Below, one piece after another: positions 9,495-35,859 of a DNA stretch of 38,793 bases. The first letter of the stretch is position 1. The number at the start of each line of letters is the position of its first letter. Origin of the DNA: Anaerolineaceae bacterium (GTDB lineage: Bacteria; Chloroflexota; Anaerolineae; Anaerolineales; Anaerolineaceae). The DNA lies in NCBI GenBank assembly GCA_034428975.1, contig DAOUGY010000385.1, positions 1 to 38,793 on the forward strand. The letters run 5' to 3'. A model generated the notes under the pieces. The model was not told the origin of the DNA. It saw nothing but the letters and a program-made list of their open reading frames with translations, and made no database searches. Made by a program: the position numbers and the translations under genes.

Positions 9495-10643
9495 CTACGG
9501 CACGGGTGAATTGAGGCGGAACCAAATAAGCATCCAGAACGGGATCAGACCGCCCACCGCCAACGCCGCCAGAAGGCCCAGGCCGATGCTGCCCCAATCG
9601 ATTTCGGGGAGGCTGGCGCGTGCTTTCTGCGTTGGAACCGGCGGATAAAGCGGCGGTTGTGACGGACGCGGGCCGGCTGCCGCGGGATAAGCCGGCGAGG
9701 GCATGGGGCGGCCGTTGGCGGGCGTAGGATAAACCGGCGAGGGTGCGGGGGAGGAAGATTGAATCGGGGGTTGTGTGCCGAGAATTGGCGCCGGATTGTC
9801 AAAGTAATCGGTGGCGCGGCTAAACGAAACCAGCACCCGGCCGAACTGGTCGGCTGTGCGATATCGGGCAGACGGTTCCTTGGAGAGCACTTTAAGCAGA
9901 ATTTGCTCCAAAGCGGGGGGAATCTCCGGATTGAGGCGGCGCGGAGGGGTGGGGGTGGCATCGCGGTGCAGGCGGGCCAGTTCAGAGGAATCGCTGGTGT
10001 TGAAGGGCAGCTGCCCCGTGAGCATTTCGTAGAGGATCACACCCAGGGAATAGACATCCGATGCCAGGGTGGGCGCCAGGCCGGAGGCCTGTTCGGGAGA
10101 GAAATACTGGGGTGAACCCCAGACCACATCATGCTGCTCATCGGGTTGGATGGAGGATAAGGCGCGGGCGATGCCGAAATCGGTGACCTTCAGGCGCTGA
10201 TCGGGGGTGACGAGCATGTTGTGGGGTTTGACATCGCAATGAACGATACCGGCGCGATGCGCGTAGCCAATGCCGGCGCAGGCCTGAACCATGAGCGGAA
10301 TGGCTTCTTGAAGGGGCAGGCGGCCGCGTTGTTTGAGGATGGTTTTGAGATCGGTGCCGGGAACCAGCTCCATGACGATGAAGAGGCGGCCGTTGTCGAA
10401 ACCAAAGTCGTGGACAGTGACAATGTTGGGATGCGTGAGATTGGCGGCGGCGCGAGCTTCCTGGCGAAAACGTTCGCGGAAGCCTTCATTTTGAGAATAA
10501 TCGTGGCGCAGAAGTTTGATGGCGACCGGACGTTCCAGCAGTTGGTCCTGGGCGCGGTATACAACCGCCATTCCGCCTGATCCAAGCGTTTGCTGGATGC
10601 GGTATCGATTACCCAAGATTGGTGCAGAGCCGGGGTTGTCCAT
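9495..10643 (-). CDS. Ser/Thr protein kinase, Pro-rich linker, single C-terminal TM anchor (no PASTA)
   Basis: Hanks kinase motifs are readable: G-loop LGSGGMAVVY, VAIK, catalytic loop IVHCDVKPHN (Cys where RD kinases carry Arg), DFGIAR and SPEQ. A P-rich low-complexity segment follows, then IGLGLLAALAVGGLIPFWMLIWF about 8 residues from the stop. Confidence 0.9.
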   Translation of the reverse strand: MDNPGSAPILGNRYRIQQTLGSGGMAVVYRAQDQLLERPVAIKLLRHDYSQNEGFRERFRQEARAAANLTHPNIVTVHDFGFDNGRLFIVMELVPGTDLKTILKQRGRLPLQEAIPLMVQACAGIGYAHRAGIVHCDVKPHNMLVTPDQRLKVTDFGIARALSSIQPDEQHDVVWGSPQYFSPEQASGLAPTLASDVYSLGVILYEMLTGQLPFNTSDSSELARLHRDATPTPPRRLNPEIPPALEQILLKVLSKEPSARYRTADQFGRVLVSFSRATDYFDNPAPILGTQPPIQSSSPAPSPVYPTPANGRPMPSPAYPAAAGPRPSQPPLYPPVPTQKARASLPEIDWGSIGLGLLAALAVGGLIPFWMLIWFRLNSPVP

Positions 10644-14139: not shown

Positions 14140-15351
14140 TTATTTCTTTTTGGTCAGCAAGTACGCGCCCAGGCCGATGACACTGGCCAATGCCGCCAAT
14201 CCCACCCCGGCCTGAACCACGGTTTTGGGTTCCATGCCAGGAAGAACCACCTGGCCGTCGCCATAGGATTTAAACAACTGTCCCCAGGGGGTTTGCAGGG
14301 CTTCTTCCACACGTTTGCGGCCCACGAAAGGGTACCAGTAGACATTGTGATAGAAATTGCTGGCAAAATAGCTCCAGGGGACAATGGGGCTTTGTAGCAG
14401 GGGTTTCTCGAGGGGCTTGAGGGGGCCGTGGTAGATCAGCTTCTGTCCACGGGATGCGAAGGTATCCTCCTGGACGAAACGCCAGGGCTGTTCCTGTTCG
14501 ATGTCGTAACCCACGATCTCGATTTCGCGTGGATCGCCCACCCCCAGGCCCATCTCATGCGACATGCGGATAAAGGGGATCGACATGGGATCGAAGCCCT
14601 GCAATTTCGCGGAAACGGCATCGATGGCTACCTGGTCGGCGGAGGCCAGCAGGATGTTCTTCTCGTGCCAGCGCATGGCGCGCGGACCGGGGCCGTCACC
14701 GGCAAAGGTGCCGTCCATGAGGGCGAAAATGCCGGGATGAATCTCCTGCTGAATCATGAGCAGGTCGACCAGGGTTTCGTGGATGACGGAGTGCGTCCAA
14801 TGGCGATTGCGATGCAACAGGCCGCCAAAGGCGTTCTTCATCGCGCCGGTGATGGTGGTGAATACATGGGTTTTGACAGTCGGCAGATGGACGATGTTTT
14901 TACCCACCAGGGTTTTGGGGATGAATACTCCGTGAGGATAGACTTTGTCCAATACCAGGAACGGCCGTTTGGGATGGTACTCCATCCAGTCGAATTTTTC
15001 TTCGTAGAGGTAGGTGCAGGGGATATTGTATTGATCGGTGACAAACTTGTGCTTGTTGTTGGCTTCGCCGACAGAGGTATCCACAACCACCGTATCGTTG
15101 TGGATGCCGACCAGGTCGTTGTAGCCCAGCTTCTGCAGGGTCTGAATTGCGCCTTCCAACTGCCAGGGCGTGGATGAGCACGCCGGGTACCAGGTCTGCC
15201 AGGAAATGTTGATTTTCAACCCGGTGGTGCTGTCTTTGGGCAGAGCCTGTTCCACGCCGGCCAGGCGCATGACCTTTTCGATATCTTCCAGGACGGTTTC
15301 AGGCGATGTTTTGATAACCGCTACTTTGCCTTTGCCAGGGTAATCACTCAT
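14140..15351 (-). CDS. DUF362-domain protein with C-terminal TM anchor
   Basis: The N-terminal block KVAVIKTSPETVLEDIEKVMRLAG...GLKINISW and the later THVFTTITGAMKNAFGG resemble the DUF362 family, an assignment from memory. The C-terminus VVQAGVGLAALASVIGLGAYLLTKKK is a predicted TM. ATG 15351 is preceded by aaggag; the track start at 15375 lacks an SD. Confidence 0.72.
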   Translation of the reverse strand: MSDYPGKGKVAVIKTSPETVLEDIEKVMRLAGVEQALPKDSTTGLKINISWQTWYPACSSTPWQLEGAIQTLQKLGYNDLVGIHNDTVVVDTSVGEANNKHKFVTDQYNIPCTYLYEEKFDWMEYHPKRPFLVLDKVYPHGVFIPKTLVGKNIVHLPTVKTHVFTTITGAMKNAFGGLLHRNRHWTHSVIHETLVDLLMIQQEIHPGIFALMDGTFAGDGPGPRAMRWHEKNILLASADQVAIDAVSAKLQGFDPMSIPFIRMSHEMGLGVGDPREIEIVGYDIEQEQPWRFVQEDTFASRGQKLIYHGPLKPLEKPLLQSPIVPWSYFASNFYHNVYWYPFVGRKRVEEALQTPWGQLFKSYGDGQVVLPGMEPKTVVQAGVGLAALASVIGLGAYLLTKKK

Positions 15352-15393
15352 GATTTGCTCCTTCTCTGAAAACACGAGGCGCGTTCACACCCC

Positions 15394-15423
15394 ATTTTAG
15401 CCAATTTGAAGATCAAAATCCAA
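15394..15423 (-). promoter_or_regulatory. Putative promoter for the DUF362-glnA transcript
   Basis: Read on the minus strand: TTGGAT (15423-15418), an 18-nt spacer, then TAAAAT (15399-15394), about 40 nt upstream of ATG 15351. Confidence 0.35.
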
Positions 15424-15490
15424 TTATATCCTACCCGTTCTTTCGTGTATTTATTCATCCTTTGCCCTTTTGAAAGGCGGATCAATTTTG

Positions 15491-15519
15491 TTGCATTTCA
15501 GGCAGGGCGCGCATATAAT
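15491..15519 (+). promoter_or_regulatory. Near-consensus sigma-70 promoter for the kinase/PP2C/vWA/FHA operon
   Basis: TTGCAT (15491-15496), a 17-nt spacer, then a perfect TATAAT (15514-15519) in an AT-rich 275-nt intergenic region. This implies a leader of about 125 nt. Confidence 0.5.
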
Positions 15520-15649
15520 TTATTCATTAACCGCACGGTTGATCTAGAAGACTACCCAAACAATTCGATTGAGCGGGGTACAAACGGATGGATGCGGATT
15601 TGAACCACACGCAGGGACAATCCGCCGCACGCTTAAATCGCACAATCCG

Positions 15650-17560
15650 ATGGGGGTTGTGATCCTGCAGGAGGATACCCTGAGCACTCAGCAAATCAAT
15701 CAACCTTCCAATGACAGCCGGCCGGCCATGCAACAGCTTCCGCCGGGCTACGTGCTTGCCAGCCGGTATCAGGTGCAGGATGTGATTGGCGTTGGTGGCA
15801 TGGGGTCGGTTTATCGTGCACGGGATTTGCATTTTCAGAATGCCGTCAAGCTGGTGGCGGTTAAAGAGATGATCAATCAGGCGCCGGACCCGCTGGTGCG
15901 GCGAACGATTGTGCAGAACTTTGAGCGGGAAGCCAATATTCTCGTCACGCTGAGCCATCCCAGCATTCCCAAAATTTTCGATTTTTTTAACGTTGAAGAC
16001 AAATCCTACCTGGTGTTGGAGTTCATCAACGGTAAAGATCTGGAAGCGATTCTTAATTCTTCGCCGGGGTTTATTCCAGAGAATCAAGTGATTGCCTGGG
16101 CGATTGAACTGTGCGACGTACTGGCGTATTTGCATTCGCACAAGCCTGAACCGATTATCTTCCGGGATATGAAACCGTCGAATGTGATGATCAATCAACA
16201 CGGGCATGTGATGTTGATTGATTATGGGATTGCCAAGATCTTTAAGACCGGGCAAAAAGGTACGATGATCGGCACCGAAGGGTATTCGCCGCCGGAGCAA
16301 TATCGCGGCGAGGCTACACCGGTAGCCGATTTGTACTCCCTGGGGGCTACGCTGCACCATTTACTGTCCAAACGCGACCCTCGACTGGAAGCGCCTTTTT
16401 CGTTTTCTGAGCGCCCCATGCGACAAATCAACCCAGCTGTCTCACCGGAATTGGAGCTGGTCATCAACAACCTGCTGCGCTACGATCCGGAGGAACGGTA
16501 TAAGACAGCCGATGCAGTGCGTGAAGCTCTGATGGGCGTGGCCAAGAAGACCGGCGCGCTGATCAGCATTCAAAAGATGGGCGGCATCACGGGCAAGGAG
16601 CAGGGCATCAAACCGTTTTGGACGTTCCAATGTGAAGATGAAGTTCGCGGCAGCGCAACATACGACTCGGGATTCGTCTATGTCGGATCGTACGATAACA
16701 ACTTGTATGCTTTGAACGCCGCGACCGGCGAATTTTCCTGGAAATTTGCGACAGAAGGGGGCATCATTACCCGGCCGGCTGTGGAAGATGCGGTCTTGTA
16801 TTTGGGCTCCGAGGATCACAATTTTTACGCGGTTTCAGCGCGAAGCGGCAAGCAGCTGTGGACATGCACCACTGGCGGACCCATTCGCTGCTCACCGCGA
16901 ATCGCGGAAGGTCACGCCTTCATTGGATCGGACGACGGCTTCTTACGTGCCGTGAATCTTAGCTCGCAGCGCGAAACCTGGCGAGTGGATGCCAATGGGG
17001 CGGTACGGTCGATGCCGATTGTGAACAACGGGCTGATTTATTTTGGCAGCGACAACGGCGATTTCTTCTGCATCGATTTTCGCGGGCAGATTAAGTGGCA
17101 GTATCGTGCCAAACGCGCGATTTTTTCGTCTCCACTGCTCTCAGGTGGTCTGATCTTTTTCACTTCGTTGGACGGCACCTTTTGTGCCCTGGATGCGAAA
17201 TCGGGTTGGGTGATCTGGCGTTTCCGAATGGGCAAGGGGTCGATTTCATCTCCTTGCAAGGCGGATAATCTTGTTTATGCAGGTTCGGCGGACGGTTATA
17301 TCTACTGCGTGGAAGCCACCAGCGCGAAAGAGGTATGGCGTTTCCAAACCAATCATCAGGTGAGTGGATCACCGGTGGTTTATAAAGACGCGTTGTATTG
17401 TGGGAGTGCCGACGGTACGATGTATTGCCTGGACAGCAAGAATGGACGGGTGCGGTGGAAGTTCAGCACGGGGGGCGCGATCACCGCGGCGCCGGTCGTG
17501 GTCAATGATATTTTGTATTTTGGCTCGGTCGATCATATCCTGTACGCGTTGAATGTTTGA
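15650..17560 (+). CDS. Soluble Ser/Thr protein kinase fused to an 8-blade PQQ-like beta-propeller
   Basis: Kinase motifs GVGGMGSVY, VAVKEM, IIFRDMKPSN, DYG (in place of DFG) and SPPE. Eight repeats of the pattern hY.GS.D..hY.h....G...W.F then run from about 16612 to the stop. No hydrophobic segment is visible. The start is uncertain: ATG 15650, ATG 15728 (MQQLPPGY) or the track start 15569. Confidence 0.85.
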   Translation: MGVVILQEDTLSTQQINQPSNDSRPAMQQLPPGYVLASRYQVQDVIGVGGMGSVYRARDLHFQNAVKLVAVKEMINQAPDPLVRRTIVQNFEREANILVTLSHPSIPKIFDFFNVEDKSYLVLEFINGKDLEAILNSSPGFIPENQVIAWAIELCDVLAYLHSHKPEPIIFRDMKPSNVMINQHGHVMLIDYGIAKIFKTGQKGTMIGTEGYSPPEQYRGEATPVADLYSLGATLHHLLSKRDPRLEAPFSFSERPMRQINPAVSPELELVINNLLRYDPEERYKTADAVREALMGVAKKTGALISIQKMGGITGKEQGIKPFWTFQCEDEVRGSATYDSGFVYVGSYDNNLYALNAATGEFSWKFATEGGIITRPAVEDAVLYLGSEDHNFYAVSARSGKQLWTCTTGGPIRCSPRIAEGHAFIGSDDGFLRAVNLSSQRETWRVDANGAVRSMPIVNNGLIYFGSDNGDFFCIDFRGQIKWQYRAKRAIFSSPLLSGGLIFFTSLDGTFCALDAKSGWVIWRFRMGKGSISSPCKADNLVYAGSADGYIYCVEATSAKEVWRFQTNHQVSGSPVVYKDALYCGSADGTMYCLDSKNGRVRWKFSTGGAITAAPVVVNDILYFGSVDHILYALNV

Positions 17561-17584
17561 ATTCTCTGAGCGCTGGAGGCTGAT

Positions 17585-18481
17585 TTGTTCGAGTTTATTC
17601 GCAAGCTCTTAAAGAAAGAACCGCAAAAAACGGCAAAGCAGGATGCACAGACGATGCCGCTGGCTGAGGAGCAATTGGCTACGGTCACCTATCTGCCTAC
17701 GCCATATACACCGGCGCAGGTGATTGTGGGCAGCGGTCAATCGGTCGGCAAACAGCGCGACCATAACGAGGATACCCTGCTGGCATTCAACGCCATTATC
17801 GCGGATGGCGGCACCGATATGCCTTTTGGTGTATTCATCATTGCCGACGGCATGGGCGGCCATTTGCATGGAGAAGCTGCCAGCAATGCCGCGGTGCGAT
17901 CGATGGCGGATACGCTGATGCGGAAAATGTACCTGCCGGTTTTGGGCGTCACGGAGCGGGGATTTCAACAGAGCATTCAAGAGACGCTGGAAGAAGGAGT
18001 GCGAAGTGCGCACCAGGCGGTGGTGATCCGCGCGCCGGGGGGGGGCACAACGTTGACAACAGTGCTTTTGATGGGCGAACAGGTGAGTATTGCGCACGTC
18101 GGAGACAGCCGGGCTTACTTCTTGTTCCCGGATGGACGCGTGCAGGCAATCACCCAAGACCATTCGCTGGTCCGGCGACTTGTGGAGCTTGGGCAGCTGA
18201 GCGAAGCGGACGCCCTGACACACCCTCAACGCAGCGTGTTGTACCGCGCGATCGGGCAGTCGGAACCGTACCGGGCCGATATTCAGACTTTGCCGGTACC
18301 CAAACCGGGTTACTTGATGATATGCAGCGACGGGCTGTGGGGCGTCGTGCCTGAATCGGACATCTTCCGCATTGTTAAAAACAGCAGCACACCTTCGGAT
18401 GCATGCAAAGCTATGGTTGAAGCCGCCAACGAAGCCGGTGGGCCGGATAATATTTCGATCATTCTGGTGCAATTCTTGTAG
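17585..18481 (+). CDS. PP2C-family Ser/Thr phosphatase
   Basis: Metal-binding motifs NEDT, IIADGMGGHLHGEAAS, VGDSRAY, CSDGLWG and GGPDNISIILV. The TTG start at 17585 lies 5 nt after GGAGG (17575-17579). Confidence 0.9.
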   Translation: MFEFIRKLLKKEPQKTAKQDAQTMPLAEEQLATVTYLPTPYTPAQVIVGSGQSVGKQRDHNEDTLLAFNAIIADGGTDMPFGVFIIADGMGGHLHGEAASNAAVRSMADTLMRKMYLPVLGVTERGFQQSIQETLEEGVRSAHQAVVIRAPGGGTTLTTVLLMGEQVSIAHVGDSRAYFLFPDGRVQAITQDHSLVRRLVELGQLSEADALTHPQRSVLYRAIGQSEPYRADIQTLPVPKPGYLMICSDGLWGVVPESDIFRIVKNSSTPSDACKAMVEAANEAGGPDNISIILVQFL

Positions 18482-18504
18482 ATTCGCCTGGCATGGGGTA
18501 GGGC

Positions 18505-19983
18505 ATGGAGCAAAATCATTATCGGGTTTTGCAAATTCCGATTGACGCCACACCGGAGGAAATCCGGGCGGCTTACTTTGACGCCGCCCGGCAGTTTCAT
18601 CCGGATGTTAATCCGGACCCGGCAAGCCGAGAGATATTCCTTCAGATTCAAAAAGCGTACGATGTGCTGGTGGATCCCGTTACGCGGGTTGAGTATGACC
18701 AAAAACTGCCGGAGGGAGAAAAGATTCGGCCGGCAATTCAGGCCAATCTGGTGTACAGCCGTTCGGCGCTGCGCGCATTGAATGAGCCGCAACTGATTTA
18801 TGCGTTGTTGGATTTGGTGTGCCTAGTGGAACCGGACCCTTCGGGGCTGCCACCTGTGCATGTTTGCGTGGTGATTGACCGGTCCACCTCGATGTCGGGC
18901 GAGCGCATTGAAATGGTTAAGCATAGTGTGGCGCAATTTCTGCATAAGCTGCGTGACCAGGATATGGCTTCGATTGTGACTTTTTCGGACCGGGCGGAAA
19001 CCTTTATCCCGCCAACGTTAATCAGCGAGATTCCGGGATTAGACAGCAAACTGAGCATGATTTATATCGGTGGGGCGACCGAGATCATGCAAGGGATGCA
19101 GCTGGGCATTTCGCTGCTGCGGCAGGGTGCCGGACGCAACAGCATGATGCGCTATTTGATCCTCATTACGGATGGGCATACCTATGGCGATGAAGGCGCC
19201 TGTTACGAGTTGGCGCGAGCCGCATCCGCCGAGGGAATCTCGATCAACACGCTGGGGATCGGCAGTGAATGGAATGATGATTTTTTGGATCGCCTGGCGA
19301 GTATCGGCGGCGGCAACACATCCTATATCTCAAAAACCAAAGACCTGGTTGATTTCTTTGAAAAGCGAGCTGAATCGGCGGCGATGGTGTATGCCCGGAA
19401 TTTAAATTTTGAGTTTGCCACCGATGCGGGCATCCGGATGAATTATGCCTTTCGGATTCACCCGGAAATCAGCGAGCTGCCTATGACCAGCCCGATTCCA
19501 CTGGGAAGTCTGTATTATGGTTCGTCGATTCGATTGTTGTTCGAATTTCAGGTTGACCCATTGGATTCAGACGTGGATACGGTTCGGCTGGCTCGTGGTA
19601 AACTTGTTTTAGAGTTGGCCTCTCATCTTGGTCAGCTGCATCGCATTTTGGTGGGGATGCGCTGCCCGGTGATCGGTGAGTATGTTTTGGAAAGCCCGCC
19701 GGATGCGCTGATGGATGCACTCTCCCGCCTGACGTTGTACCGAATTCAACAAAAAGTTCGTGGGGAAGTGGAGAGCGGGGAAAACGTTAAAGCGGCGCGC
19801 CACCTGCAGCAATTGGCAACCAATTTGCTGGCGCGCGGCGAACGGGATTTGGCGCATATGATGTTGACCGAAGCCGACCATATCCGGCATCAGAATTCGT
19901 TCAGCCTGGATGGTGAGAAACGAATCAAATACGGCACGAGAGCGTTACTATTACCTCCCGAGGCAGGAAGTCCGACGCTATGA
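18505..19983 (+). CDS. J-domain / von Willebrand factor A (MIDAS) fusion protein
   Basis: N-terminal DnaJ J-domain (HYRVLQI...EIRAAYFDAARQFHPDVNPD with an intact HPD). The vWA domain has the MIDAS motif VVIDRSTSMSG (DxSxS), GGATEI and ILITDGHT. A C-terminal region of about 200 aa is unassigned. Confidence 0.85.
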   Translation: MEQNHYRVLQIPIDATPEEIRAAYFDAARQFHPDVNPDPASREIFLQIQKAYDVLVDPVTRVEYDQKLPEGEKIRPAIQANLVYSRSALRALNEPQLIYALLDLVCLVEPDPSGLPPVHVCVVIDRSTSMSGERIEMVKHSVAQFLHKLRDQDMASIVTFSDRAETFIPPTLISEIPGLDSKLSMIYIGGATEIMQGMQLGISLLRQGAGRNSMMRYLILITDGHTYGDEGACYELARAASAEGISINTLGIGSEWNDDFLDRLASIGGGNTSYISKTKDLVDFFEKRAESAAMVYARNLNFEFATDAGIRMNYAFRIHPEISELPMTSPIPLGSLYYGSSIRLLFEFQVDPLDSDVDTVRLARGKLVLELASHLGQLHRILVGMRCPVIGEYVLESPPDALMDALSRLTLYRIQQKVRGEVESGENVKAARHLQQLATNLLARGERDLAHMMLTEADHIRHQNSFSLDGEKRIKYGTRALLLPPEAGSPTL

Positions 19984-20501
19984 TCATCTGTCCCAATTGC
20001 CAAAACCAAGAGTTAGAAGGCGCGTTATTTTGCAGTGAGTGTGGTTCCAGGTTGGTGCCCATGGATCTTAAAAAAACGCAATCGTTAGGCCAGGTTGGAA
20101 ATACCGGATTAATCCCACCGCTACCGCAAGCCGGCGCATTCTTCGAAGCGCAGGAAGGCGCCCAGGTTGGGGAGCTGGAAATTTCTGTCCATTTAATGGA
20201 CAGCGGACAGGTGTTGAATCTAGCGGGCCGGACGGAGTTCACGCTGGGTAGGGTGGCGGAAGGGCAACCGATCTTGCCGGATGTGGATCTGTCTCCATAT
20301 GAGGCCTACGGCCAGGGCGTTTCACGGCTTCATGCCGCTTTGAAAATCATTGGCGGACGTCTGGCGGTGACCGACCTGGGTTCTTCGAATGGAACGCGCG
20401 TAAATGGGCAGAAAATAGTCCCTCATGTGGATTACCCCATCAATCATGGCGATATCGTGACGCTCGGGAAACTTCGTTTGCAGGTATTGCTGGGAAAATA
20501 G
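19980..20501 (+). CDS. Zinc-ribbon / FHA-domain protein
   Basis: N-terminal CPNC-x12-CSEC zinc ribbon. The C-terminal FHA domain shows FTLGR, GVSRLHAAL, DLGSSNGTRVNG and GDIVTLG. The start overlaps the upstream stop (ATGA). Confidence 0.87.
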   Translation: MIICPNCQNQELEGALFCSECGSRLVPMDLKKTQSLGQVGNTGLIPPLPQAGAFFEAQEGAQVGELEISVHLMDSGQVLNLAGRTEFTLGRVAEGQPILPDVDLSPYEAYGQGVSRLHAALKIIGGRLAVTDLGSSNGTRVNGQKIVPHVDYPINHGDIVTLGKLRLQVLLGK

Positions 20502-20509
20502 GTGAATGA

Positions 20510-20749
20510 ATGTACACGGTATTGATCCATCTTCAAAATGAAGATCCCGTATTGTGTGAGGTGGAAGAACTTCCAACTCCCACGGATTTGATGATCACAG
20601 TCAAAAACCCTCGAAAGAAAGATGGAAAAGATTTGCATTATCTGGAACCAAATGTGACGACCGTGATGTGGCCGATATCGCGGATCACATTCATTGAAAT
20701 CATCCCTGGCGCTGAAGAAGAAGACATTATCAGCTTTGTGCGGGAGTGA
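20510..20749 (+). CDS. 79-aa hypothetical protein (operon-embedded, unknown family)
   Basis: The ORF is wedged exactly between the FHA gene (8-nt gap, aggtga SD) and the regulator (GTGA overlap). It has no motif I recognise. My hand count gives about 43% GC. Confidence 0.55.
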   Translation: MYTVLIHLQNEDPVLCEVEELPTPTDLMITVKNPRKKDGKDLHYLEPNVTTVMWPISRITFIEIIPGAEEEDIISFVRE

Positions 20750-21480
20750 GTCCTATGCCGGATGAGACATTCAAGAATCGATTGATTCTCGTAGTGGACG
20801 ATGAAGAACGCATGGCGCGGTTTATCCGCCTGAATCTGGAGCACGATGGGTTCCAGGTGATTGAAGCGTATCGCGGCGGCAAAGCGATTCAGATGATTCG
20901 CGATTCGATGCCTGACCTGGTGATCTTGGACGTGATGATGCCGGATATGGATGGTTTTGAAGTGCTGCGCACGGTGCGAGAAATCAGCAGCCTCCCGGTG
21001 ATTATGTTGACCGCCAAGGGCGAGGAAGATGACCGGGTGCGCGGATTGGAATTGGGCGCCGATGATTATGTGACCAAACCCTTCAGCCCGCGGGAGTTAA
21101 TCAGCCGGGTGCGGGCTGTTCTACGCCGAACCGAGACGGCTTCGCCCTCGACCCATGGGATCATTGAGGTGGATGAGCATTTGCACATTGATTTTGACCG
21201 GCGCGAGGTGAAATTGGACGGCAAGCCCATCAAGCTGCGGCCGACAGAATACCGGTTGCTGTATCAACTGGTGCAGAATGCGGGCTGGGTGCTGACGTAT
21301 GATCAAATTCTGTCGAAAGTATGGGGGTATGAATATCGTGACGAGCCGCATTACGTGCGATTGTACGTGAATTATCTGCGCCAGAAGCTCGAAGAAGACC
21401 CGGCCAACCCCCGCTATATTCTGACAGAACGGGGTGTTGGTTACCGGTTTGTGGATTTTCACCGCAAGAAAGACAATTAA
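20746..21480 (+). CDS. OmpR/PhoB-family response regulator (no cognate histidine kinase adjacent)
   Basis: The receiver domain has DDEE, the phospho-acceptor context LVILDVMMPDMDG, LTAKGE and KPF. The winged-helix output shows LRPTEYRLLYQL and GVGYRF. The start is GTG 20746 or ATG 20755. Confidence 0.9.
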   Translation: MSPMPDETFKNRLILVVDDEERMARFIRLNLEHDGFQVIEAYRGGKAIQMIRDSMPDLVILDVMMPDMDGFEVLRTVREISSLPVIMLTAKGEEDDRVRGLELGADDYVTKPFSPRELISRVRAVLRRTETASPSTHGIIEVDEHLHIDFDRREVKLDGKPIKLRPTEYRLLYQLVQNAGWVLTYDQILSKVWGYEYRDEPHYVRLYVNYLRQKLEEDPANPRYILTERGVGYRFVDFHRKKDN

Positions 21481-21499
21481 GCTTTCTGACAAAGTGTTA

Positions 21500-21544
21500 A
21501 TACTCCGTTTGCGAAATTCCGATGCAAACGGAGTATCTTTTTCT
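21500..21544 (+). terminator. Rho-independent terminator ending the six-gene operon
   Basis: 13-bp perfect stem atactccgtttgc (21500-21512) / gcaaacggagtat (21524-21536) with an 11-nt loop, followed by ctttttct. Confidence 0.72.
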
Positions 21545-21589: not shown

Positions 21590-21799
21590 ATGCCATTGTA
21601 TAGTTTTGTTTGTGAAGATTGTGGACAGCGTTTTGACCGCCGCCTGCCTTTCAGCCAGGCCGATGAACAGCAGGTTTGTCCGAAGGGTCACCGACACGTT
21701 CACCGTGAGCTGGCCGTGCCGGCCATTGTCTTTCGCGGAAATGGTTTTTATGTGACGGACCACCCGAAGACTGCGCCGTCTGGAGAAAAGTTTTCGTAA
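21590..21799 (+). CDS. FmdB-family zinc-ribbon protein
   Basis: MPLYSFVCEDCGQRFD...CPKGH matches the CxxC...CPxC/H FmdB pattern. ATG 21590 follows aggagg. The track start at 21434 overlaps the regulator and the terminator. Confidence 0.8.
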   Translation: MPLYSFVCEDCGQRFDRRLPFSQADEQQVCPKGHRHVHRELAVPAIVFRGNGFYVTDHPKTAPSGEKFS

Positions 21800-32328: not shown

Positions 32329-33843
32329 TTATGCTCCTGCCAATACAGCCGAATTCCTGGATGCTGCTATGAAGTGCTGCTCGCTGACCCGGCGAAAATG
32401 ATAACCATAAATGGACAGGGTAATCGCCATGGGGAAGAGATCCGGGCGATTGCGCAAAGACCAGAAGAATAGATCCCAGTACTGCCGGCGCTCTTTGCCC
32501 AAAATGCCAAGGCGAATTATCGAACGAAAGAAAGCCAGAATTTCACGCAGCTCGAGATGGACGGATGCTCGCGCCGGTTGAAATTCCAACAAGAACGTCT
32601 TAATGCGCTCATAAAAATACTCCGGAGAGTAAATTCGCTTCAAAATGCTCAGATAACCGGTGCGTAATTGGTTGGCTTCCATTTTGGGGATGATATTGGT
32701 TGAACCGTCGGCGTTGTCGCCAGACATTTCGGTAAGCAAGCGATTCTCTTTGGCCATGCGCTGGTACAGACGGGTGCCAAACGGAGCCTGCAGGAGACCC
32801 ACCATGGCAGTGACAATCCCGCTGTTTTGTATGAAATCCACCTGGCGATCGAAGATTTTTTCGGTATCGCTGTCAAAGCCAACGATGAAACCTGCCATAA
32901 CCTGCAGCCCGGCGCGCTGCAACTTTTTTACGCTGGCAATCAAATCGCGCTTGATATTTTGCTTCTTATTGCACTCGATGAGAGATTCTTCGTCGGGGGT
33001 CTCGATGCCAACAAAGATGGAAGTGAATCCGGCCTGGACCATTTGCGTGACCAGGTCATCGTCGTCGGCCAGGTTGATCGATACTTCTGTCAAGAAAAGG
33101 CACCCAATTTTGTCTTTTCGCCATTCGATCAAAGCCGGAAGGACTTCTGTCTTCAGGACTCTTTTATTGCCAATAAAGTTATCGTCCACCAGGAAGATAT
33201 TGCGCCGCCAACCGGCGTTGTACAGGCTGTCCAGTTCGGCGATGAGCTGAGTGGCGGTTTTGACCCGCGGAAGATGGCCAAACAGAGCGGTGATATTGCA
33301 GAACTCGCAATCAAACGGGCAGCCACGCGAGAATTGCACCGCCATCGAGTCGTAATGCTTCATATCCAATAAATCCCAGCGGGGAATTGGGGTTTGGGTG
33401 ATGTCGGGAAATTCAGTGGATTGATACAAACGGTGGGGGTGGCCAGCCTGCAGGTCTGACAGGAACCGGGGCAGGGTAATTTCGGCCTCATTCAGAACAA
33501 AGTGATCGACGCCCGGAAACGAATCATATTCTCCAGTGAAAAGCGGCCCGCCGGCGACTACCGGCAAGTTGACTGCCTTGACGCGTTTGATCAATTTGTG
33601 AGTCGAGTCGCGCTGAACATCCATGGCACTGATGAAAACCATTTCCGCCCAGCGAAGATCCGAGGGGCGTAGCGTGGTAACGTTCAGGTCGATCAGACGC
33701 AACTCCCAATCGGCAGGCAGCATGGCAGCGACAGTCAACAAGCCGAGTGGAGGATTGGTGCCGCGTTTGCTGACAAAGCGCACGGCGTGCTTGAAGCTCC
33801 AAAATGTATCGGGAAATTCAGGGTAAAGCATGAGAACACGCAT
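32329..33843 (-). CDS. B12-binding-domain radical SAM protein (class B, DUF4070-type C-terminus)
   Basis: N-terminal cobalamin-binding Rossmann-like region (MRVLMLYPEFP...PLGLLTVAAML) and a radical SAM cluster motif SRGCPFDCEFCNI (CxxxCxxC). ATG 33843 lies 8 nt after gaggtg. Confidence 0.85.
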   Translation of the reverse strand: MRVLMLYPEFPDTFWSFKHAVRFVSKRGTNPPLGLLTVAAMLPADWELRLIDLNVTTLRPSDLRWAEMVFISAMDVQRDSTHKLIKRVKAVNLPVVAGGPLFTGEYDSFPGVDHFVLNEAEITLPRFLSDLQAGHPHRLYQSTEFPDITQTPIPRWDLLDMKHYDSMAVQFSRGCPFDCEFCNITALFGHLPRVKTATQLIAELDSLYNAGWRRNIFLVDDNFIGNKRVLKTEVLPALIEWRKDKIGCLFLTEVSINLADDDDLVTQMVQAGFTSIFVGIETPDEESLIECNKKQNIKRDLIASVKKLQRAGLQVMAGFIVGFDSDTEKIFDRQVDFIQNSGIVTAMVGLLQAPFGTRLYQRMAKENRLLTEMSGDNADGSTNIIPKMEANQLRTGYLSILKRIYSPEYFYERIKTFLLEFQPARASVHLELREILAFFRSIIRLGILGKERRQYWDLFFWSLRNRPDLFPMAITLSIYGYHFRRVSEQHFIAASRNSAVLAGA

Positions 33844-33981
33844 GATTTGCACACCTCGAGGTTAAGTTGTCCTGCTGCCTTCAGTGTATCGATGGGATGT
33901 CGGTTGGAGATGTGAAGCAAGTCACTTTGCGGCGCACAAGCCGGCGGGCTGTTTGTGAATGGGGATGTGACTTGTTTGGGA

Positions 33982-34015: not shown

Positions 34016-35206
34016 ATGATAGGCGGCGATCGAAAGAATCAGGTTTATCGAACCGGTTTGGGGGCGGACATCGCCTTTGCCGTGGCGCTGCTGGCGTCGT
34101 ATTTTGCGATGTTCAGCTCCTTCTCCACGTCCTCCGCGCTGGAAGTCACCCTTCTCATTGTGCTGGGAACCGCCTACCTGATGATCGGCATCTATGGCTA
34201 CAGTTTTGCTGGTAAGTCGGGGCAGCTCAAGATACAGCTGCTGTATTTTGCCGTGCAACTGCTGCTGGGCGCTGCGATTATATACTTAAGCAAAGGGTCG
34301 ATATACAATGCCCTGATCCTTCTGCCGCTGGCGGGTCACAGCGTGGTGATGCTGCCACCCAATGCCAGCTACCTGGTGAACCTGGCGATCACGCTGGCCT
34401 TTAGCATTGGAACATACATGTTGCCGGCTGGATGGTCCGGGTTGGTGGCGATTTTGCCGACCTTTCTCACCGGCCAGATTTTTATTGTTGTGTTTACCCA
34501 GATGGCGATCAGTGAAGAGCGTGCCCGGAAAGAAGTGGAGCGTTTGTTTGTGGAACTGGAAATGGCCAATCATCAGTTGCGCGAATATGCGGCTCAGGTG
34601 GAGGATCTGGCCATTGCCAATGAACGCAACCGTCTCGCGCGTGAAATACATGATGGGTTGGGGCATTATCTGACGACCATCCACATGCAAATTCAAGCCG
34701 GCCGGGCGGTGATTGACCAGGATCCGGAGCGGGCGCGCAAAGCTTTTTTGACGGCGCAATCTCTGGCGCAGGAAGCGCTGCAAGAAGTGCGGCGGTCGGT
34801 GTTTGCTCTGCGCGAATCGGCCAAATCGAGCCTCGGGCTGGAAGATTCGATTCAAGAGTTGATCCGCACGGATGACAACCCCGGATTGGACATTGAATTC
34901 AAGCTGCTCGGGGAGAAGCGCCCGCTGGCTGCGCAAGCGCAATTAACACTATTTCGAGCCGTGCAGGAAGGGATGAACAATGTGCGCAAGCACGCCAACG
35001 CCAGCCATGTGTGGATCGAACTCGATTTCAGCCTGGAGCAACGGGTACGCTTGAGTTTCCGCGACGATGGTGTGGGCAGTGAAGACCCCACCGGGGGCTT
35101 TGGGCTGATCGGCTTGAAGGAGCGGGTACAATTAATCAACGGCGATGTTCAGATTTCGAGCGCGCCGGGCCAGGGATTCTTAATCGAAGTGGTGGTGCCT
35201 GGATGA
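34016..35206 (+). CDS. Sensor histidine kinase (HisKA_3/NarX-LiaS-DesK type, multi-TM, no extracytoplasmic domain)
   Basis: About 5 N-terminal TM helices joined by short loops. H-box ERNRLAREIHDGLGH, N-box EGMNNVRKHA, and DDGVG / GFGLIGLKERV. Confidence 0.88.
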   Translation: MIGGDRKNQVYRTGLGADIAFAVALLASYFAMFSSFSTSSALEVTLLIVLGTAYLMIGIYGYSFAGKSGQLKIQLLYFAVQLLLGAAIIYLSKGSIYNALILLPLAGHSVVMLPPNASYLVNLAITLAFSIGTYMLPAGWSGLVAILPTFLTGQIFIVVFTQMAISEERARKEVERLFVELEMANHQLREYAAQVEDLAIANERNRLAREIHDGLGHYLTTIHMQIQAGRAVIDQDPERARKAFLTAQSLAQEALQEVRRSVFALRESAKSSLGLEDSIQELIRTDDNPGLDIEFKLLGEKRPLAAQAQLTLFRAVQEGMNNVRKHANASHVWIELDFSLEQRVRLSFRDDGVGSEDPTGGFGLIGLKERVQLINGDVQISSAPGQGFLIEVVVPG

Positions 35207-35859
35207 ACCAAGTAATTCGTGTCATGTTGGTGGACGACCAATCGTTGTTCCGTGAGGGATTGCGTACGCTGCTATCCGTCCAACCGGATTTTGAGGTGGT
35301 GGCAGAGGCGTCGAATGGTGAAGAGGCGTTGCGGTTGGCCGCTCAAAAGCACCCGCATGTAGTGCTGATGGATCTGCGCATGCCCGTGTTGGACGGCGTA
35401 TCTGCCACGCGGCGCATGCGCGAATTGTTCCCGGATATCCGTGTGCTTGCGCTGACGACCTTTGACGATGACGAGAATTTGTTTGGCGCTATTCGTGCTG
35501 GAGCGGTGGGTTATTTGCTCAAGGATATCTCATCCGACCGGCTGTTTGAAGCGCTGCGAACCGCAGCACGCGGCGAGTATTACCTGATGCCCTCCAGCAC
35601 CGCGCGAATTGTTGAGGAGTTCTCTCGCATTGCCGCGGCGCCAATTCAGCCGGCCACCCAGCTGCCCGACCCGCTGTCCGCGCGCGAAGTTGAAATCCTG
35701 CGGATGGTGGCAACCGGGGCGAGCAATCGTGAGATCGCGGACACGCTGGTCATTGCCGAAGGCACGGTAAAAAACCATCTGACCAGCATCCTGGCCAAAC
35801 TGAGCGCAAAGGACCGTATGCAGGCAGTGCTGCGGGCGCGCGAATTACGGATTATATAG
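35203..35859 (+). CDS. NarL/FixJ (LuxR-type HTH) response regulator
   Basis: The receiver shows MLVDDQ, VVLMDLRMPVLDG and LALTTF. The LuxR HTH reads LSAREVEILRMVATGASNREIADTLVIAEGTVKNHLTSILAKL. An ATGA overlap links it to the kinase. Confidence 0.92.
   Translation: MNQVIRVMLVDDQSLFREGLRTLLSVQPDFEVVAEASNGEEALRLAAQKHPHVVLMDLRMPVLDGVSATRRMRELFPDIRVLALTTFDDDENLFGAIRAGAVGYLLKDISSDRLFEALRTAARGEYYLMPSSTARIVEEFSRIAAAPIQPATQLPDPLSAREVEILRMVATGASNREIADTLVIAEGTVKNHLTSILAKLSAKDRMQAVLRARELRII

Follow-up and report, generated by a model that had tools for sequence, protein, structure and literature searches.

Here we describe a cluster of six genes on a 38,793-nucleotide (nt) stretch of an Anaerolineaceae genome (contig DAOUGY010000385.1 of assembly GCA_034428975.1), referred to below, at its full length, as the window. 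Two of these genes, which overlap each other, are a bacterial counterpart of the ArnB/ArnA pair, with a kinase and a phosphatase encoded in cis. ArnA, an FHA protein, and ArnB, a vWA protein, are regulators in the archaellum network of Sulfolobus acidocaldarius/Saccharolobus, in which ArnC and ArnD are the kinases and PP2A is the phosphatase (PMC6509490, PMC12852372). In that network, the Hanks-type kinase ArnC phosphorylates Thr residues in the C-terminal helix bundle of ArnB, the FHA domain of ArnA binds the product, and PP2A reverses the modification; the zinc finger of ArnA contacts the beta-sandwich and C-terminal domain of ArnB (PMC6509490, PMC12852372). Weighing the evidence set out below, we give somewhat better than even credence to the reading that the locus is a Chloroflexota version of this phosphothreonine (phospho-Thr) switch, equipped with its own writer and eraser.

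The six open reading frames (ORFs) lie on the plus strand between positions 15650 and 21480. A preliminary description of this DNA had called them a packed, same-strand set with defined domains, and this was borne out: all six appear in the ORF list, and Pfam agrees with every domain call, the 79-amino-acid (aa) ORF having no Pfam match. The features of the locus are as follows.

15491 to 15519 (+): promoter-like TTGCAT-17-TATAAT, read directly from the sequence, between the divergent DUF362 and kinase genes
15650 to 17560 (+): Hanks-type Ser/Thr kinase with a C-terminal PQQ/BamB-like beta-propeller (STK-PQQ; Pfam); the ORF opens at TTG 15569
17585 to 18481 (+): PP2C-type Ser/Thr phosphatase, Stp1/IreP-like (Pfam PP2C/PP2C_2)
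18505 to 19983 (+): ArnB-like vWA protein with an N-terminal J domain (J-vWA; Pfam DnaJ and VWA, AlphaFold2 and Foldseek)
19980 to 20501 (+): ArnA-like reader with a zinc ribbon, low-complexity linker, and FHA domain (ZnR-FHA; Pfam FHA and Zn_Ribbon_1)
20510 to 20749 (+): s79, a predicted small acidic, five-stranded, Sm-like beta-barrel (AlphaFold2, Foldseek)
20755 to 21480 (+): OmpR-family response regulator (RR) with a receiver and a winged helix (Pfam); GTG 20746, overlapping the s79 stop, is an alternative start
21500 to 21544 (+): intrinsic-terminator hairpin with a 13-bp stem, 11-nt loop, and U-rich tail (RNA folding)

An ArnA-like reader

The ZnR-FHA protein begins with a CxxC...CxxC ribbon. 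Its four Cys residues are invariant in 14 homologues, as are R91, S115, H118, and N137 of the FHA domain. When these homologues were combined into a profile, the best match in the entire PDB was ArnA (5a8i_A; E = 1.5e-14, residues 4 to 202), and the ArnA chain 8s05_C was retrieved as well. A search of the PDB with the single sequence did not find ArnA; the family profile was needed. The alignment spans the ribbon, which reads C-x2-C...ALFCxxCGA in both proteins, the low-complexity linker, and the remainder of the protein to the end of the FHA domain. This full-length architecture is the distinctive feature of the match, and the profile comparison identifies ZnR-FHA as homologous to ArnA over its full length. 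The zinc ribbon had been put forward as a new addition to an FHA reader, a claim that does not hold because ArnA already carries one.

A vWA protein with the architecture of ArnB and a J domain

The partner of this reader comprises a J domain (residues 1 to 67), a vWA domain with a metal ion-dependent adhesion site (MIDAS; residues 118 to 292), a beta-sandwich made of residues 78 to 106 and 295 to 390, and a four-helix bundle (residues 400 to 481). More than 3,500 homologues of about 490 aa were found in Anaerolineae-type sequences. The J domain is recognized by Pfam DnaJ (5.7e-18, residues 4 to 65), and its H32, P33, and D34 are invariant in 16 sequences; the MIDAS residues D125, S127, S129, T192, and D223 are likewise invariant.

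In the AlphaFold2 model (pLDDT, 87.8), the J and vWA domains are accompanied by a sandwich completed by N-terminal strands and by the C-terminal four-helix bundle. The best Foldseek matches in the PDB were a Catenulispora vWA protein (4fx5), ArnB (8s05_A/B), and the ArnB paralogue vWA2 (5a8j), with TMt values of 0.67 to 0.78 over about 415 to 440 columns. For ArnB itself, TMt was 0.74 to 0.77 over about 415 to 427 columns, and for vWA2 it was 0.67. Sec23/24 and the inter-alpha-inhibitor heavy chains came next. A sequence profile of the family retrieved ArnB as well (E = 2.3e-15), with an alignment that covers the vWA domain and the first part of the sandwich. The model thus shows residues 78 to 481 in the architecture of ArnB, namely, a vWA domain, a beta-sandwich, and a helix bundle at the C terminus.

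The C terminus of this protein carries the sequence K-x-I-K-Y-G-T-R-x-L, which contains the motif T478-x-x-L481 (nt 19936 to 19947). Both T478 and the Leu at +3 are invariant in 10 of 10 aligned vWA homologues, including J-less proteins at 27 to 29% identity, and T478 is the sole invariant Thr of the C-terminal region in this alignment. As the motif resembles the pT-x-x-L/I ligands of FHA domains, we predict that T478 is a phosphorylation site.

The kinase and the phosphatase

The kinase matches Pfam Pkinase (1.8e-42) and Beta-prop_ACSF4/PQQ_2, an architecture like that of AfsK, and its motifs VAVK, RDMKPSN, DYG, and PPE are intact. It has no transmembrane segment and, judging by its sequence, appears to be a cytoplasmic and active enzyme. 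Orthologues in 77 loci align over their full length at 56 to 69% identity. The phosphatase is recognized by NCBIfam Stp1_PP2C_phos at 204 bits, under the cutoff of 230. None of the six products contains a 19-residue Kyte-Doolittle window above 1.5, which indicates that all are soluble and agrees with the proposal that the system has no membrane component.

The kinase also bears on a different reading, in which the module, like PknB-PstP-FhaA/FhaB, governs the growth of the envelope, cell division, or the formation of filaments, with the vWA and FHA proteins acting on envelope or cytoskeletal targets and not on transcription. Triads of Ser/Thr kinase, PP2C, and FHA protein control envelope growth and division in Actinobacteria. 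The best NCBIfam match of the window kinase is AfsK, albeit far below the cutoff (215 bits against an equivalog cutoff of 1300), and AfsK phosphorylates DivIVA as well. In addition, murA lies 0.8 kb downstream of the cluster. However, murA is on the opposite strand and belongs to the general synteny of the region, no PASTA domain, membrane anchor, or ftsW/pbp gene is found in the cluster, and the nearest characterized homologues, ArnA and ArnB, act on gene expression. We therefore consider an envelope role improbable.

Other kinase genes occur in the vicinity. A second Hanks-type kinase of 382 aa, with only the kinase domain recognized by Pfam, is encoded 5 kb upstream (9495 to 10643, minus strand), where it adjoins rpe and a Na/Ca exchanger gene. 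An additional kinase-domain gene is located a few kilobases downstream of the RR gene in loci L099, L101, L106, L112, L119, and L158.

The small protein s79

The product of the fifth gene has no match among Pfam (including LSM), NCBIfam, or PADLOC models. It is nonetheless a real, conserved gene, with homologues at about 65 to 94% identity and a family that comprises 274 clusters at 50% identity. The AlphaFold2 model (pLDDT, 86) has five strands and no N-terminal helix. All but one of the top 50 Foldseek matches in the PDB have the Sm/LSm fold, each of them weak (TM score, 0.52 to 0.61; E, 0.01 to 0.1). The protein has a pI of 4.6, a Glu-rich acidic linker, and a conserved C-terminal tip, I-I-S-F-V-R-E. 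None of its Ser or Thr residues is invariant, and for this reason it is more adaptor-like in character and probably not a conserved substrate of the kinase.

The family is broader than the module. In Limnocylindria (about 2,278 proteins), s79-like proteins of 100 to 170 aa (L081, 9001 to 9339; L082, 9001 to 9327) combine the same barrel with a lengthy acidic linker of low complexity and keep the conserved tip at the C terminus; their genes are followed by xerC.

Conservation of the cluster and its genomic setting

We scanned one genome per species and found a J-vWA relative in at least 556 genomes, of which the 80 closest loci were fetched. All 80 are from Anaerolineales, and the range of the six-gene cluster was accordingly mapped within Anaerolineales-like genomes. 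Metagenomic s79 loci were found with a scan seeded with a single sequence (P0262). Cultured carriers include Anaerolinea, Bellilinea, Thermanaerothrix, Leptolinea, Ornatilinea, and Longilinea.

Every one of the 80 fetched loci with enough flank had the six genes in identical order and strand, in line with the proposal of a conserved kinase/PP2C/FHA/vWA signaling module, and among 90 sufficiently flanked loci anchored on s79, about 80 had the complete set of six. Median orthologue identity was 79% for the RR, 63% for the kinase, 62% for s79, 56% for ZnR-FHA, 55% for PP2C, and 45% for J-vWA. Spacing was conserved as well: junctions were at most 50 nt between PP2C and vWA genes in 80/80 loci, between s79 and RR genes in 78/78, and between kinase and PP2C genes in 85/91. 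The vWA-FHA junction was at most 15 nt in 79/79 loci, with the exact 4-nt overlap in 39 of them, and the RR gene overlapped s79 by 1 to 4 nt in five loci. Clustering of the six genes is far beyond chance. Some database entries in a representative protein library (P0344, P0367, P0382, P0313, P0274, and P0281) run from the end of the PQQ propeller into s79 or from s79 into the beginning of an RR; these are read-through or frame-shifted calls, an independent record of the same adjacencies in other samples and not true fusions.

Linkage beyond close relatives was found for the vWA, ZnR-FHA, s79, and kinase genes, in rearranged variants from other Chloroflexota, several of them recovered from metagenomes. 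Locus L134 reads STK-PQQ, PP2C, vWA (no J), FHA, s79, and an extracytoplasmic function (ECF) sigma factor. Locus L113 reads PP2C, vWA, ZnR-FHA, and s79, with a convergent fabF next, and L141, L160, and L162 have vWA (no J), ZnR-FHA, and s79, followed by a radical SAM gene. In L084 to L089 and L093, the last of which clusters with a Nitrolancea sp. protein, a kinase orthologue (STK-PQQ) is followed directly by s79 and nothing else of the module. The vWA/ZnR-FHA pair is therefore retained in distant, J-less loci (L113, L134, L141, L160, L161, and L162), and s79 is linked both to the kinase and to the ArnB/ArnA-like pair in differing arrangements, which is the signature of a functional link.

Several neighbors in these variants are worth recording. 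In the divergent lineage of L134 (9258 to 10429), the slot after s79 that OmpR fills in Anaerolineae holds the ECF-type sigma factor, with a SUKH/SMI1-KNR4 protein next to it on the far side. A gene of the B12-binding radical SAM type (Radical_SAM_N2) lies directly 3' of s79 in L141 (9243 to 11183, with a 4-nt stop overlap) and L160 (9231 to 11129), and another radical SAM gene precedes the kinase gene in L134 (2352 to 3452). The window itself has a B12/radical SAM/DUF4070 gene 11 kb from the operon (32329 to 33852, minus strand). These recurring radical SAM neighbors are possibly a coincidence.

In the window, the cluster is embedded in core-genome surroundings. It is flanked upstream by glnA and DUF362 and downstream by trx and murA, all likewise syntenic in Anaerolineales genomes, and the remainder of the window is of a housekeeping nature (Lon, RecG, FakA/DegV, Rpe, GlnA, and MurA). 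The GC content of the cluster is 51 to 56%, at the low end of the 50 to 61% found across the window, with no sharp edge at its boundaries. The housekeeping surroundings and the absence of a sharp GC boundary argue against a mobile island. Between the terminator and trx lies a gene for an FmdB-type zinc-ribbon protein (Zn_ribbon_8; 21590 to 21799, plus strand), which was detectable in 13 of the 80 genome loci; the RR-trx spacer is thus a variable spot in an otherwise rigid synteny.

This setting bears on the suggestion, made in the preliminary description, of a conflict-type system. A TerY-P-type antiphage or conflict system consists of the same three enzyme and domain classes (vWA, PP2C, and kinase), and the window kinase matches the PADLOC models PD-T4-6 and mad6. 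It does so as generic Hanks kinases do, the PADLOC match of the PP2C protein is generic as well, and the vWA, FHA, and s79 proteins match no PADLOC model; a defense-system identity was rejected on these grounds. The C terminus of the kinase is a PQQ propeller, neither a zinc ribbon nor an OB fold, and no effector, nuclease, or restriction gene is nearby. All complete loci of the 80 genomes occupy one fixed place flanked by housekeeping genes, which is consistent with vertical inheritance, and the GC profile likewise speaks against this identity. A conflict-type function is thus disfavored, and we regard it as very improbable.

A probable single transcription unit

The junctions between the six genes had been given as 24, 23, -4, 8, and -4 nt, and the first four stand. 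The kinase and PP2C genes are separated by 24 nt, with GGAGG 6 nt 5' of the TTG start of PP2C; PP2C and J-vWA are separated by 23 nt; J-vWA and ZnR-FHA share an ATGA overlap; and s79 follows the FHA gene after 8 nt. At the last junction, the GTGA overlap at first assumed is less likely than a spacing of +5 nt to ATG 20755, because the Shine-Dalgarno (SD) sequence GGGAG at 20742 to 20746, within the coding end of s79, precedes this ATG and most orthologue alignments start at or near residue 4. SD-like sequences are found 5' of the PP2C, vWA, s79, and RR start codons. The kinase start is most likely ATG 15650, as orthologue alignments extend to residues 5 to 7 of that start.

The unit had also been described as bracketed by a promoter and a terminator, and here the evidence differs between the two ends. 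Because the upstream DUF362 gene (14140 to 15375) is divergent, the operon promoter must lie within 15376 to 15649. TTGCAT-17-TATAAT falls in this interval and has a perfect -10 hexamer, but only three of the six bases of its -35 hexamer agree with TTGACA. A consensus promoter scan did not call it and returned no plus-strand site, with fewer sites in total than in shuffled sequence; it is a plausible promoter candidate that lacks statistical support. The terminator after the RR gene is real: the stem at 21500 to 21536 is followed by CUUUUUCU and has a folding free energy of -20.6 kcal/mol (z = -3.97; 0 of 200 shuffles fold equally well). In 29 of 76 loci, a hairpin resembling a terminator is found no farther than 120 nt from the RR stop, some of these hairpins having the same stem sequence. 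We infer that the six genes probably form a single transcript.

The hairpin 3' of the RR gene is conserved in sequence as well as in shape, with the stem ..CG(Y)TTGCR / YGCAA(R)CG.. and a loop that frequently ends in TTCTAA or CTCTAA. Besides the window (21500 to 21536), it is found in L012, L017, L029, L034, L065, L126, L127, and L131. Of 116 loci, 9 have the exact pattern TTGCR-N4-12-YGCAA no more than 200 nt from the RR stop, where about 1.4 would be expected, and further loci carry looser forms of it. No Rfam family was matched in the whole window, this hairpin included. Besides acting as a terminator, the hairpin could serve as a palindrome for protein binding or as a small RNA element.

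The response regulator: output or passenger

The last gene encodes a response regulator with strong matches to Pfam Response_reg (1.2e-32) and Trans_reg_C (2e-25) and, as read from the sequence, a canonical phospho-acceptor set (DD...D...T...K). It is the most conserved of the six (68 to 83% identity), and its nearest NCBIfam models are RpaB, MtrA, and YycF, each under the cutoff. Neither the operon nor the window encodes a HisKA-type histidine kinase, as had been noted before. The only histidine kinase in the window belongs to a HisKA_3 and LuxR-type (NarL-type) pair, 12.5 kb away (34016 to 35859, plus strand) and unrelated to the operon RR. The description of the RR as an orphan holds in that no histidine kinase gene is adjacent. 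In a wider sense it probably does not hold, since the canonical acceptor set points to a histidine kinase elsewhere; moreover, the RR is linked to the module only where the vWA protein has a J domain.

Among loci that could be judged for both features, the J domain on the vWA protein and an OmpR gene after s79 were both present in 94 and both absent in 5, counts that are not phylogenetically independent. A single apparent exception was an incomplete alignment.

These data can be read in a second way. The switch may consist of only the kinase, PP2C, vWA, and FHA proteins, perhaps with s79, while the RR is a housekeeping regulator of the essential type (RpaB/MtrA/WalR-like) that works independently of it, answers to a histidine kinase of its own elsewhere, and is co-located and co-transcribed through inherited synteny. 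Its median identity of 79% against 45% for the vWA protein, together with the canonical Asp acceptor set, would suit such a regulator, and glnA, DUF362, trx, and murA are equally syntenic across Anaerolineales. Outside the lineage the RR is missing, its slot being taken by the ECF sigma factor (L134), the convergent fabF (L113), or radical SAM genes (L141 and L160). On the other hand, the s79-RR junction is at most 50 nt in all 78 loci, the SD sequence of the RR lies inside the coding end of s79, and presence of the RR tracks the J-domain fusion exactly. The ECF sigma factor in the same slot also fits transcription output as a recurrent element of the module. Control of OmpR-family regulators by Ser/Thr kinases is established, as in PrkC-WalR, Stk1-CovR, and AfsK-AfsR. 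We hold the housekeeping interpretation to be possible, if on the unlikely side, and a role of the RR as the transcriptional output of the module to be plausible but unproven.

A proposed phospho-Thr switch and its possible output

Under the reading that we favor, an ArnA/ArnB-type switch with its own writer and eraser, the system might operate as follows. By analogy with Sulfolobus, the propeller domain would sense an intracellular cue and the kinase would phosphorylate the vWA protein in its C-terminal helix bundle or tail, with the invariant K-Y-G-T478-R-x-L481 as the leading candidate site. The FHA domain of the ArnA-like protein would then clamp the phosphorylated vWA protein, with the zinc ribbon resting on the beta-sandwich and C-terminal domain, so that a loose complex would become a tight one, and PP2C would reset the switch. 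From the J domain at the N terminus of the vWA protein, with its invariant HPD motif, we infer that the state of the switch may be coupled to DnaK, either through remodeling of the complex or through handover of a MIDAS-bound client. The s79 barrel, with its acidic tail and C-terminal tip, could be an adaptor that bridges the kinase and the vWA/FHA complex. The co-translated OmpR-type regulator would be the most likely transcriptional output, by way of sequestration, chaperone action, or Ser/Thr phosphorylation atop Asp phosphorylation.

A number of points weigh against this interpretation. The ArnA match leads by a small margin only (57.6 bits, against 53.1 for an FHA-only match). Sequence similarity to ArnB is limited to the vWA domain and the start of the sandwich, and the three-part vWA fold is also found in proteins that are not phospho-switches, such as YfbK and 4fx5. 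T478 is a predicted site, whereas ArnB uses several Thr residues in helices alpha8 and alpha9. Given that the housekeeping flanks are syntenic too, co-occurrence within Anaerolineales alone is no proof of function. OmpR is missing from the module outside the J-domain lineages, and the covariation of the two may reflect one phylogenetic event. The Limnocylindria s79 genes (L081 and L082) lie between dprA and topA with none of the other module genes nearby, a setting that may hint at a more general, possibly nucleic-acid-related, role for s79. Finally, each mechanistic step is carried over from Sulfolobus or drawn from sequence.

A more far-reaching version is that ArnAB-type switches, in which the architecture of the vWA component is that of the Sec23/24 core, are an ancient module of Bacteria and Archaea, which in Anaerolineae became a chaperone-coupled pathway from Ser/Thr phosphorylation to transcription. 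In such a pathway, phospho-T478 would recruit the reader and the J domain would direct DnaK to remodel or release a bound client, OmpR or the s79 adaptor, making Hsp70 the output step of a kinase cascade. We put this forward as a speculation that is probably not correct in full. If it were true, concrete downstream partners would be nominated for the archaeal ArnAB output. A J domain on a phospho-regulated vWA scaffold would constitute an unusual direct link between Ser/Thr signaling and Hsp70.

The 2026 structural paper on ArnAB reports no DNA binding and points to further, unidentified factors downstream. A conserved operon that combines a kinase, a phosphatase, a chaperone-recruitment domain, an adaptor, and a transcription factor offers a compact set of candidate partners for this unresolved output and may indicate how ArnA/ArnB-type switches reach their targets. 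The findings also show the pairing of an ArnB/Sec23-24-like vWA architecture with a ZnR-FHA reader to be more widespread than was known, and the carriers include cultured Anaerolineae whose regulation is almost unstudied.

Comparison with known systems

The logic of a Hanks-type kinase, a PP2C phosphatase, and an FHA protein acting as writer, eraser, and reader is shared with PknB-PstP-FhaA/FhaB and with PpkA-PppA-Fha1 of type VI secretion. Those systems differ in that their kinases are membrane proteins with PASTA or periplasmic sensor domains and in that they have no ArnB-like cytoplasmic vWA protein, J domain, Sm-like protein, or RR. Streptomyces AfsK is a cytoplasmic PQQ-propeller kinase that signals to AfsR, a protein with an OmpR-type DNA-binding domain, and the small kinase-binding protein KbpA is encoded beside it. 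This adjoining small protein recalls the STK-PQQ-s79 pairs of the Nitrolancea-type loci. Unlike the window system, the AfsK system is not known to include vWA, FHA, or PP2C proteins, and within the tests made, s79 and KbpA are unrelated.

The TerY-P triad, as quoted from Anantharaman et al. 2012 in PMC11090510, comprises a TerY-like vWA protein, a phosphatase of the PP2C class, and a Ser/Thr kinase that has a zinc ribbon or OB fold fused to it and was proposed to be a phosphorylation switch. Genes of the three classes are adjacent in the window too. As defined, the triad includes no FHA reader, and its kinase bears the zinc ribbon or OB fold where the window kinase bears a propeller, the ribbon of the window system being on the FHA protein. 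The triad occurs in tellurite-resistance, restriction, and CoCoNuT islands, with some versions acting in defense, whereas the window locus is part of the core genome and its vWA protein has no PADLOC match.

Deinococcus radiodurans DRA0331-DRA0334 encodes a vWA protein, a membrane Ser/Thr kinase, an FHA protein, and a KI-FHA-PP2C protein, for which an FHA/phosphatase push-pull has been reported in vitro (bioRxiv 10.64898/2026.01.23.701218). It is thus also a bacterial operon with a vWA protein, a Hanks-type kinase, a stand-alone FHA protein, and PP2C. Its kinase is transmembrane, its PP2C has an FHA domain of its own, its gene order differs from that in the window, and it has no J domain, Sm-like protein, or RR; this comparison is one of gene content and not of homology of DRA0331/DRA0333 to ArnB/ArnA. 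The Deinococcus preprint also remarks on FraH, a ZnR-FHA protein of cyanobacteria.

The system had been called undescribed. For its core this is not so, given the homology to ArnA/ArnB and the published TerY-P and DRA0331-DRA0334 systems; for the full combination it may stand: a literature search of incomplete coverage found no paper on a bacterial ArnA/ArnB pair with kinase and phosphatase in cis, a J-domain-vWA fusion, or an Sm-like partner. In the ArnA literature consulted, FHA proteins are described as conserved, among archaea, only in Crenarchaeota, and the bacterial look-alikes of ArnB that it mentions are structural ones only.

ArnA/ArnB itself is the closest relative. In both systems the reader consists of a zinc ribbon, a low-complexity linker, and an FHA domain, with the same ribbon motif; the three-part fold of ArnB corresponds to residues 78 to 481 of the window vWA protein; and a Hanks-type kinase and a Ser/Thr phosphatase are present. 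In the archaeal system, the FHA domain reads phosphosites located in ArnB's C-terminal helix bundle, and the counterpart in the window is a predicted one, a single invariant T-x-x-L motif where ArnB has a cluster of Thr residues. The window vWA protein has no detectable sequence identity to ArnB beyond the vWA domain, to which the profile match adds the start of the sandwich. The biological output must differ from archaellum repression, since the host is bacterial and no archaellum or motility genes are found in the window. The window system, then, is a bacterial (Chloroflexota) one in which a PQQ-propeller kinase and PP2C, in place of PP2A, are encoded in the same operon as the pair, and which further includes a J domain fused to the vWA protein, the Sm-like s79, and an OmpR-type regulator.

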